Source: Escherichia phage ECP52. From it: a DNA stretch of 64,000 nucleotides. The notes under the pieces are model-generated. The model was not told where the DNA came from and made no database searches. It saw nothing but the letters and a program-made list of their open reading frames with translations. Of the stretch, positions 27,093 to 27,360 are shown piece after piece; the stretch's first letter is position 1, and every line of letters begins with the position of its first letter. Both the position numbers and the translations under genes were made by a program. The DNA lies in sequence record ON782582.1; one strand, given 5' to 3'.

Positions 27093-27289
27093 ATTAACCC
27101 AACTAAAGCAAATGCTAAATCTACGAATGTATCAAGAGTAACTACTGGAATATTAATACCATGTGCAATTGCAACAGGTGATAGAATAAAGTTCCAGAGT
27201 AAAATTCCTACCATAGCAGAAATAGTAAAAGCTATACGCTTTTTATTACCTTTGATGGCATTAACAAGTGCCATTAATTTTTGTACCAT
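27089..27289 (-). CDS. reverse-strand hydrophobic small protein (66 aa), uncertain
   Basis: AAGGAGG RBS 4 nt before ATG on - strand; 3' end overlaps gene 61 stop. Confidence 0.3.
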   Translation of the reverse strand: MVQKLMALVNAIKGNKKRIAFTISAMVGILLWNFILSPVAIAHGINIPVVTLDTFVDLAFALVGLI

Positions 27290-27302
27290 ATGTCCTCCTT
27301 AT

Positions 27303-27326
27303 TGCTTTATATATTTATTGTATAAT
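27303..27326 (+). promoter_or_regulatory. MotA-dependent middle promoter for gene 56
   Basis: TGCTTTA, 11 nt, TATAAT. Confidence 0.55.
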
Positions 27327-27360
27327 TAATCTACTAACCCATGAATTGAAAGGAAAAATA

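Follow-up and report, generated by a model that had tools for sequence, protein, structure and literature searches.

The 268-bp interval between genes 61 and 56 of Escherichia phage ECP52 is very probably the dam-less state of a slot that varies among T-even phages, and the small gene lying in it on the opposite strand is a conserved gene, probably expressed late and coding for a membrane protein, that does not replace dam. The stretch of DNA that we analysed, called the window hereafter, comprises 64,000 nucleotides of this genome (ON782582.1) and belongs to a mosaic Tequatrovirus, i.e. a T4-like phage. Its best DNA matches are PE37 (97.9% identity over 24 kb) and, at the locus itself, CM8 and RB14 (99.2-99.3%). 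Collinearity with RB14 extends from gene 49 over rIIA/rIIB up to gene 34, with 94-98% identity, and the plus strand of the window shows the gene order of T4 (41, dmd, 61.4, sp, 61.2, 61.1, 61).

The window gene 61 product has the length of T4 gp61 and a near-identical sequence, and its counterpart in RB14 is annotated gp61. Gene 56 starts at the ATG at 27361, and its counterpart is annotated gp56 in RB14 and in other relatives. Between the end of the former (27092) and the start of the latter lie exactly 268 bp (27093-27360). The initial annotation of this DNA had given the same distance and had judged it too short for a methyltransferase, and with 268 bp only we agree. It had also described a hydrophobic ORF of 66 codons on the minus strand, preceded by the ribosome-binding site AAGGAGG and overlapping the stop of gene 61, and all of these elements are present in the sequence. 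Genes 41, 61 and 56 are all encoded on the other strand. The ORF converges with gene 61 in such a way that the two stop codons share the four nucleotides TTAA (27089-27092). The features of the locus are given in Table 1.

Table 1. Features of the gene 61-gene 56 locus of phage ECP52 (positions in the 64-kb window).
Feature	Position	Strand	Evidence or remark
Gene 61 (DNA primase, 342 aa)	26064-27092	+	PHROG 47 DNA primase, E 1e-106
66-codon ORF (small gene)	27089-27289	-	ORF list; PHROG 2024, E 1.4e-31
Terminator-like hairpin and T-run (candidate)	27252-27284 (hairpin 27252-27277)	+	Consensus scan, 1 site vs 0.3 expected
Shine-Dalgarno sequence AAGGAGG	27294-27300	-	4 nt before the small-gene ATG
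MotA-type middle promoter of gene 56 (candidate)	27303-27326	+	Motif match
Late-promoter-like AATAAATA (-13 to -6)	27312-27319	-	Ends 22 nt upstream of the small-gene ATG
Gene 56 (dCTPase/dUTPase, 172 aa)	27361-27879	+	PHROG 173 NTP pyrophosphohydrolase, E 2.4e-44

The relation between this ORF and dam is not the one first proposed. The initial annotation stated that T4 has dam between genes 61 and 56, which the T4 record (NC_000866) bears out, and placed the ORF where T4 carries dam, as if it were there instead. Yet T4 has both. The space between its genes 61 and dam, 309 bp that carry no annotation, contains the same 66-aa ORF with two substitutions (A25T and I45V), behind the same AAGGAGG and with the same overlap with gene 61. 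Since T4 carries the ORF alongside dam, the ORF is not a dam replacement. The distance between genes 61 and 56 is 1149 bp in T4 against 268 bp here, and the additional 881 bp, which consist of dam and its upstream region, lie beyond the promoter of the small gene and before the middle promoter of gene 56. We also considered the ORF as a decayed remnant of dam and rejected this idea, as the ORF does not resemble Dam and is found together with dam in T4.

The dam-less junction is contiguous in about 293 phage records. The ORF is present with at least 90% identity in 502 phage records and T4-type Dam, at the same threshold, in 182. Hence, about 36% of the records with the Tequatrovirus-type ORF have the T4-type Dam, and dam appears as an optional cassette in a variable slot. 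The slot harbours a homing endonuclease gene in B1.1 and a gene of 186 aa plus dam in TOPO13, and it is empty in Mosigvirus and Gaprivervirus. T4-type Dam is placed beside gene 61 in T4 and TOPO13, the two loci that were checked for position. As judged from these genome comparisons, the constant unit is gene 61 with the convergent 66-codon gene, and dam is an optional addition beyond it. The arrangement found in ECP52 is common; most sequenced Tequatroviruses have no insert between the small gene and the gene 56 promoter. The absence of dam at this locus is ordinary accessory-gene variation.

Does ECP52 carry dam at another place? The initial annotation held that the phage either lacks Dam or has dam elsewhere, and suggested a search for a homologue with the DPPY motif. 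There is none in the 64-kb window: tblastn with T4 Dam as the query gave a best E-value of 4, and the five hits of the motif [DNS]PP[YFW] showed no tblastn similarity to Dam. For the remaining ~100 kb the answer comes from relatives. RB14 has the identical 66-aa ORF in the same dam-less junction (99.2% DNA identity over a 601-bp query), and its complete genome contains neither a Dam homologue (best tblastn E-value of 1.0, against 8e-177 for the T4 positive control) nor an annotated methyltransferase. Since both the window and the complete RB14 genome are without a Dam homologue, the first branch of the alternative is the likely one, i.e. ECP52 likely has no dam, its absence beyond the window being extrapolated from relatives. 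The second branch, a dam gene in the ~100 kb outside the window, is in our view highly improbable. It draws on the fact that the window covers only ~39% of the genome and on the Dam homologues that other T4-like genera have at other map positions (near 40 kb in RB49, near 151 kb in KP15). But RB14, so largely collinear with the window, is without Dam anywhere, and any Dam-like match at all is found in at most 215 of the 512 Escherichia phage records carrying the ORF.

T4 middle promoters follow the rule of a Mot box TGCTT(T/C)A separated by 11-13 bp from a -10 element TAnnnT. On the plus strand gene 56 is preceded by a candidate promoter of this type, in which a spacer of 11 nt separates the Mot box TGCTTTA (27303-27309) from TATAAT (27321-27326). 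Its T4 equivalent is annotated as the mot-box and -10 of P(M) 16.53 (X01416), and in the T4 RefSeq record the transcript of gene 56 and segF is the oriA primer RNA. The small gene, on the other hand, had been described as having no obvious promoter of its own. This does not hold, since the minus strand contains AATAAATA, the most frequent variant of the T4 late promoter TATAAATA, and every T4-like locus examined has kept the ATAAATA core upstream of the ORF. The perfect TATAAATA is found at 32 of 50 T4 late-promoter sites and A at -13 at nine of the 50 (Geiduschek and Kassavetis, PMC2988020), and T at -13 is poorly conserved among T4-like phages (Nolan et al., PMC1524935). The core precedes the ATG by 13-22 nt in Tequatrovirus (in three different upstream contexts), in Mosigvirus and Gaprivervirus, in the Klebsiella phage Metamorpho and in the T4-like metagenome contig L031. 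The base before it is A in the dam-less Tequatroviruses and Mosigvirus, C in Gaprivervirus, Metamorpho and the metagenome contig, and G in T4 and TOPO13, where the sequence farther upstream is unrelated. ATAAATA is depleted in the window (13 copies observed, 37.7 +/- 5.3 expected) and several of the other copies are directly upstream of ORFs that we take, by their first residues, to be soc, gp34, gp36, t and gp49.

AAGGAGG occurs only three times in the 64-kb window, and another of these copies is found 4 nt before the ATG of a late ORF of 218 aa, presumably the holin gene t. The GGAG core is conserved across all homologous T4-like loci. At 4 nt, the gap from the Shine-Dalgarno sequence to the start codon of the small gene is rather short. 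Folding revealed no significant structure at the 5' end of the small-ORF mRNA (z = -1.6). Early and middle transcripts of T4 have a single polarity and only late transcripts use either strand (PMC2988020), so that a gene on the minus strand can only be late. We infer that the small gene is probably expressed late, with a predicted transcription start near 27306 on the minus strand and a leader of ~17 nt. The corresponding start in T4 would lie near position 17,722 (+) of NC_000866. In the dam-less locus the late-type and middle promoters would thus be back-to-back, within the 71 bp that separate the two start codons. Because there is no insert between the small gene and the gene 56 promoter, the late-type promoter falls inside the spacer of the middle one, whereas in T4 the two are ~0.9 kb apart. 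The dam-less locus is a compact natural test case for promoter switching, given that the middle promoter provides the oriA primer in T4.

One might object that the ORF is a chance, untranslated frame in a regulatory spacer that holds the gene 61 terminator and the promoters. Antisense ORFs of 67-113 aa are indeed common in the AT-rich DNA of this region, being present in the neighbouring 6 kb, and the length of the ORF alone is therefore not beyond chance. Besides, codons 5-13 of the small gene contain the terminator-like hairpin of the gene 61 strand, and an annotation of the 66-aa ORF is absent from both T4 genome records checked (NC_000866 and KJ477684). What sets the ORF above chance is its conservation, its dN/dS, its Shine-Dalgarno sequence and the conserved promoter motif. 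The window protein is 100% identical to those of RB14 and CM8, which are encoded at the same place and on the same strand, likewise overlapping gene 61 by 4 nt. Its residues 2-66 align with positions 1-65 of the 65 positions of the PHROG 2024 profile, which is matched by all 16 of the diverse family members tested. Homologues are found in 692 phage records and the frame is intact in 686 of them at a coverage of at least 80%; in every row sampled across the ranking of these records the ORF is beside or near the primase gene. Pairwise dN/dS is ~0.1-0.5 for most pairs, with a few close pairs reaching 0.7, and dS is saturated between genera whose proteins are still ~50% identical. Within Tequatrovirus there are 8, 2 and 13 variable sites at first, second and third codon positions, and the first-position changes are mainly between Ile and Val. 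The pattern of substitutions indicates that the 66-codon ORF is under purifying selection. Its Shine-Dalgarno sequence and ATG are conserved, and Gaprivervirus has a tandem paralogue of the small gene between the ORF and the primase gene. The protein is conserved outside Tequatrovirus but the hairpin is not: it is found in Tequatrovirus loci and absent from Mosigvirus and Gaprivervirus. We regard a chance frame as extremely improbable. A function at the level of the RNA, where a late antisense transcript would damp primase late in infection and the peptide would be incidental, seems very unlikely as well. The two genes are convergent with overlapping stop codons, and we found no terminator-like site on the minus strand between the small ORF and ~22.9 kb, so that late transcripts may run antisense into gene 61. 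Yet selection acts at the level of the protein, and its Trp-Asn...Pro...Gly core is kept at ~25-50% identity across genera, which shows that the peptide itself matters. Among T4-like members W32, N33, P38 and G44 are invariant (alignment of 21 sequences), and in a wider alignment P38 remains invariant and W32 and N33 are at least 90% conserved. It also speaks against such a mechanism that the ORF is separated from the primase gene by a homing endonuclease gene in DK-13 and by the paralogue in Gaprivervirus, and that the distant relatives are found in quite different contexts.

The range of these contexts can be outlined as follows. The window, T4, RB14, Mosigvirus, Gaprivervirus, Metamorpho and the metagenome contig all have the small gene between those for primase and dCTPase and in opposite orientation to them. 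A profile search of 1.84 billion representative proteins returned 17 relatives at the level of 50% identity, all small and unnamed, and including Klebsiella phages as well as the metagenome contig. Tail-gene modules of E. coli prophages and of other phage contigs carry distant copies at their ends, and a tblastn search with one distant member gave weak matches in rV5-like phages. The protein is very hydrophobic (GRAVY 1.25), and LMALVNAIK is its only tryptic peptide convenient for proteomics. Its AlphaFold2 model (pLDDT 81) has helices at residues 2-11, 15-42 and 52-63, and the conserved Trp-Asn...Pro...Gly core falls in the single predicted transmembrane helix. Because there is one hydrophobic span, flanked on the N-terminal side by five Lys/Arg (net charge +5) and on the C-terminal side by 25 residues with no K or R (net charge -2), we predict that the protein crosses the inner membrane once, its N-terminus inside and its C-terminus outside. 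Scans of the ORF and of the region with Pfam, NCBIfam, PADLOC and Rfam gave no matches, and Foldseek comparison of the model with viral structures retrieved its own family and otherwise only non-significant helical hairpins.

A small membrane protein with its N-terminus inside, predicted to be a late product, and with a promoter and Shine-Dalgarno layout like that of the ORF identified as t, invites comparison with holins. The protein could be holin-like or modulate lysis, as a single-span protein akin to the final helix and tail of the three-span 'GTA holin', acting on lysis timing beside the holin T; we consider this unlikely. Three of the 16 family members do weakly match the C-terminal part of the model PF11351, GTA_holin_3TM (E 0.03-0.1), two match PHROG 3427 'holin' (the best, a distant member, at E 5e-4) and two match PHROG 11161 'holin' (E 0.012). 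One UniRef entry even names a member 'Holin', a label that we assume to be automatic. But holin models match neither the window protein (no hit at E <= 10) nor the core T4-like members, the PF11351 matches stay under the gathering score, and hydrophobic stretches are a source of spurious hits. Nor did a word-indexed search with a broad alignment find a Pfam-domain-bearing relative that would bridge the family to PF11351. The genomic context also speaks against a holin, since in T4-like phages the gene never adjoins one for an endolysin or a spanin. In the E. coli prophages a lysozyme gene is found ~1.5 kb from the distant copy, on the other strand and not in a cassette with it, and a PHROG scan of the neighbours of three distant relatives (L020, L029 and L030) revealed no lysis cassette, only tail, protease-like and unknown matches. 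Finally, T4 t mutants fail to lyse, which speaks against a second functional holin. The holin identity was thus not adopted, the gene being never in a lysis cassette and the window protein without a holin-model match. Our best guess, made with low confidence, is that the small protein is an accessory envelope or lysis-timing factor.

Taking the small gene as a conserved, probably late membrane-protein gene, its expression might proceed as follows. Late in infection RNA polymerase with gp55/gp33 and the gp45 clamp would initiate ~17 nt upstream of the ATG, and the short leader would bring a strong Shine-Dalgarno sequence for translation of the small gene. The product would then insert in the inner membrane: a basic helix at the N-terminus would stay in the cytoplasm, a single transmembrane helix would carry the invariant Trp-Asn...Pro...Gly residues, and an acidic tail ~24 residues long would reach the periplasm. 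One may speculate further that the protein is the founding member of an ancient family whose products are made late, span the membrane once and have a remote kinship with the last helix of three-span holins. It would tune envelope events, for instance lysis timing or superinfection, and the family would be common to many T4-like phages and to some of the rV5-like phages and E. coli prophages. We find this quite doubtful. If it were true, the family would have gone unnoticed in T4 because the two T4 records checked never annotated the gene.

The small gene is not new, as many relatives already have it on record as a hypothetical protein. Only two points are mildly so: the T4 records that we checked omit the gene, and hallmarks of late genes are found inside an early region. 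Records NC_000866 and KJ477684 miss a conserved and probably expressed gene at ~17,738-17,938 on the plus strand, and the exact 66-aa protein of T4 has no NCBI or UniProt accession. Hence, proteomic or transcriptomic studies relying on those T4 annotations would overlook it. Our searches of the literature on ORF names, on T4 ribosome profiling and small ORFs, and on the distribution of dam found no mention of the gene. To our knowledge, no gene has been mapped at the position of the small ORF in T4 genetics; naturally, since the ORF was never annotated, its missing entry in the T4 genetic map says little on its dispensability. These results leave the current understanding of T-even biology unchanged and their practical value is small. 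Nevertheless, GATC methylation should not be assumed for 'T4-like' phages, which is relevant to experiments on restriction and BREX and to those of the DpnI type. Restriction digests give unreliable results on DNA that contains glucosyl-hydroxymethylcytosine.

How does the locus compare with known systems? The copies of the gene in relatives are annotated as hypothetical proteins, and RB32ORF030w ('similar to RB69ORF029w'; PHROG 2024, 'unknown function') is the same gene, with no difference. The dam region of T4 (Macdonald and Mosig, X01416) has flanks in common with the locus of ECP52, namely the end of gene 61, the small reverse ORF, the Mot-box middle promoter and the start of gene 56. With the holins of PF11351, PHROG 3427 and PHROG 11161 the product shares that it is a small phage membrane protein, a few distant members of its family weakly matching their last transmembrane helix and tail; it differs in having one transmembrane helix rather than three, in being encoded outside a lysis cassette and in the lack of any match of the window protein itself. 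In layout the locus resembles T4 late genes driven by TATAAATA (soc and t, as identified here), with which the small gene shares ATAAATA ~20 nt before the ATG, a short leader and a strong Shine-Dalgarno sequence. The ORF that we identify as t is organised in nearly the same way: ATAAATA, 9-11 nt, AAGGAGG, 4 nt, ATG. The small gene departs from these late genes by having A instead of T at -13, and also by standing alone in an extended stretch of early genes of opposite orientation; the first 74 kb of RB14 have only two such opposite-strand genes, the small gene being one of them.

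The surroundings of the small reverse-strand ORF (66 aa, between genes 61 and 56) and of gene 56 are an insertion hot spot. Phage B1.1 carries a homing endonuclease gene between the ribosome-binding site of gene 56 and gene 56 itself, DK-13 carries another between primase and the small ORF, and an additional gene of 186 aa adjoins dam in TOPO13. The stretch 3' of gene 56 is a further variable slot. The window has there, directly after gene 56, an ORF that we take to be soc, with its late promoter; it has no segF after gene 56 (T4 has one), nor any small ORF of the kind of soc.1/soc.2 in ime09 or RB14ncORF029c in RB14.

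Coordinates of features at the small-ORF locus and in comparison loci
Feature	Position	Strand	Context
Terminator-like hairpin with T-run	window 27252-27284	+ (gene 61 strand)	within codons 5-13 of the reverse ORF
Presumed soc ORF with late promoter	window 27880-27921 and 27922-28158	+	directly after gene 56
ATAAATA-type late promoter	window 27883-27890	+	of the presumed soc
Initiation region, 66-aa ORF	window 27289-27319	-	
Start region, 218-aa ORF	window 52021-52046	-	
Region without alignment to RB14	window 25238-25850		gene 61.2 region
T4 66-aa ORF	L001 3239-3439 (NC_000866 about 17738-17938)	+	between gene 61 and dam
Gene of the second (paralogue) type	L007 1701-1901	+	
Gene of the second (paralogue) type	L012 and L013 2701-2901		
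Gene of the second (paralogue) type	L006 about 1700-1900		
Distant relatives	L020 6001-6213; L029 5001-5210; L030 5001-5159		
Homing endonuclease gene, B1.1	L017 480-1130		
Homing endonuclease gene, DK-13	L005 1872-2621		
186-aa gene, TOPO13	L019 541-1101		

T4 has the conserved 66-aa ORF in the gap between gene 61 and dam, and neither the T4 reference record NC_000866 nor KJ477684 annotates it. Neither NCBI nor UniProt has an accession for the exact T4 protein sequence, which was found solely in Logan assemblies. In Gapriverviruses the small ORF is followed immediately downstream by a tandem paralogue, also of 66 aa and about 22% identical to it, and it is this paralogue that overlaps the end of primase. 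Proteins of this second type also occur in several Klebsiella T4-like phages, and in phage TH40 the paralogue is interrupted by stop codons. The profile search recovered more distant relatives of the small protein (E about 1e-4 to 1e-5) in E. coli and in two metagenome phage contigs, encoded where tail-gene modules end. In both contigs the gene adjoins one for Endonuclease VII, and in hundreds of E. coli assemblies, apparently within prophages, it lies close to genes for a lysozyme and for a SegE-like GIY-YIG protein.

Over its whole length the window holds 13 copies of the T4 late-promoter core ATAAATA against 37.7 +/- 5.3 expected, an approximately three-fold depletion, and the count was at least 13 in all 100 shuffles of the window. 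Several of the remaining copies precede ORFs that we take to be the late genes soc, gp34, gp36, t and gp49. The initiation layout of the 66-aa ORF (ATAAATA, 9-11 nt, AAGGAGG, 4 nt, ATG) is nearly identical to that of the 218-aa ORF, presumably the holin gene t, and these two ORFs account for two of the only three AAGGAGG motifs in the window. The terminator-like hairpin lying within the small ORF is seen in Tequatrovirus loci and is absent from Mosigvirus and Gaprivervirus.

Variation extends to the gene 61.2 region, which does not align with RB14, the close dam-less relative with an identical small ORF. The window has there the T4-like form of 213 aa, whereas RB14 has the shorter RB32ORF033c, and this difference shows local mosaicism beside the small-ORF locus.
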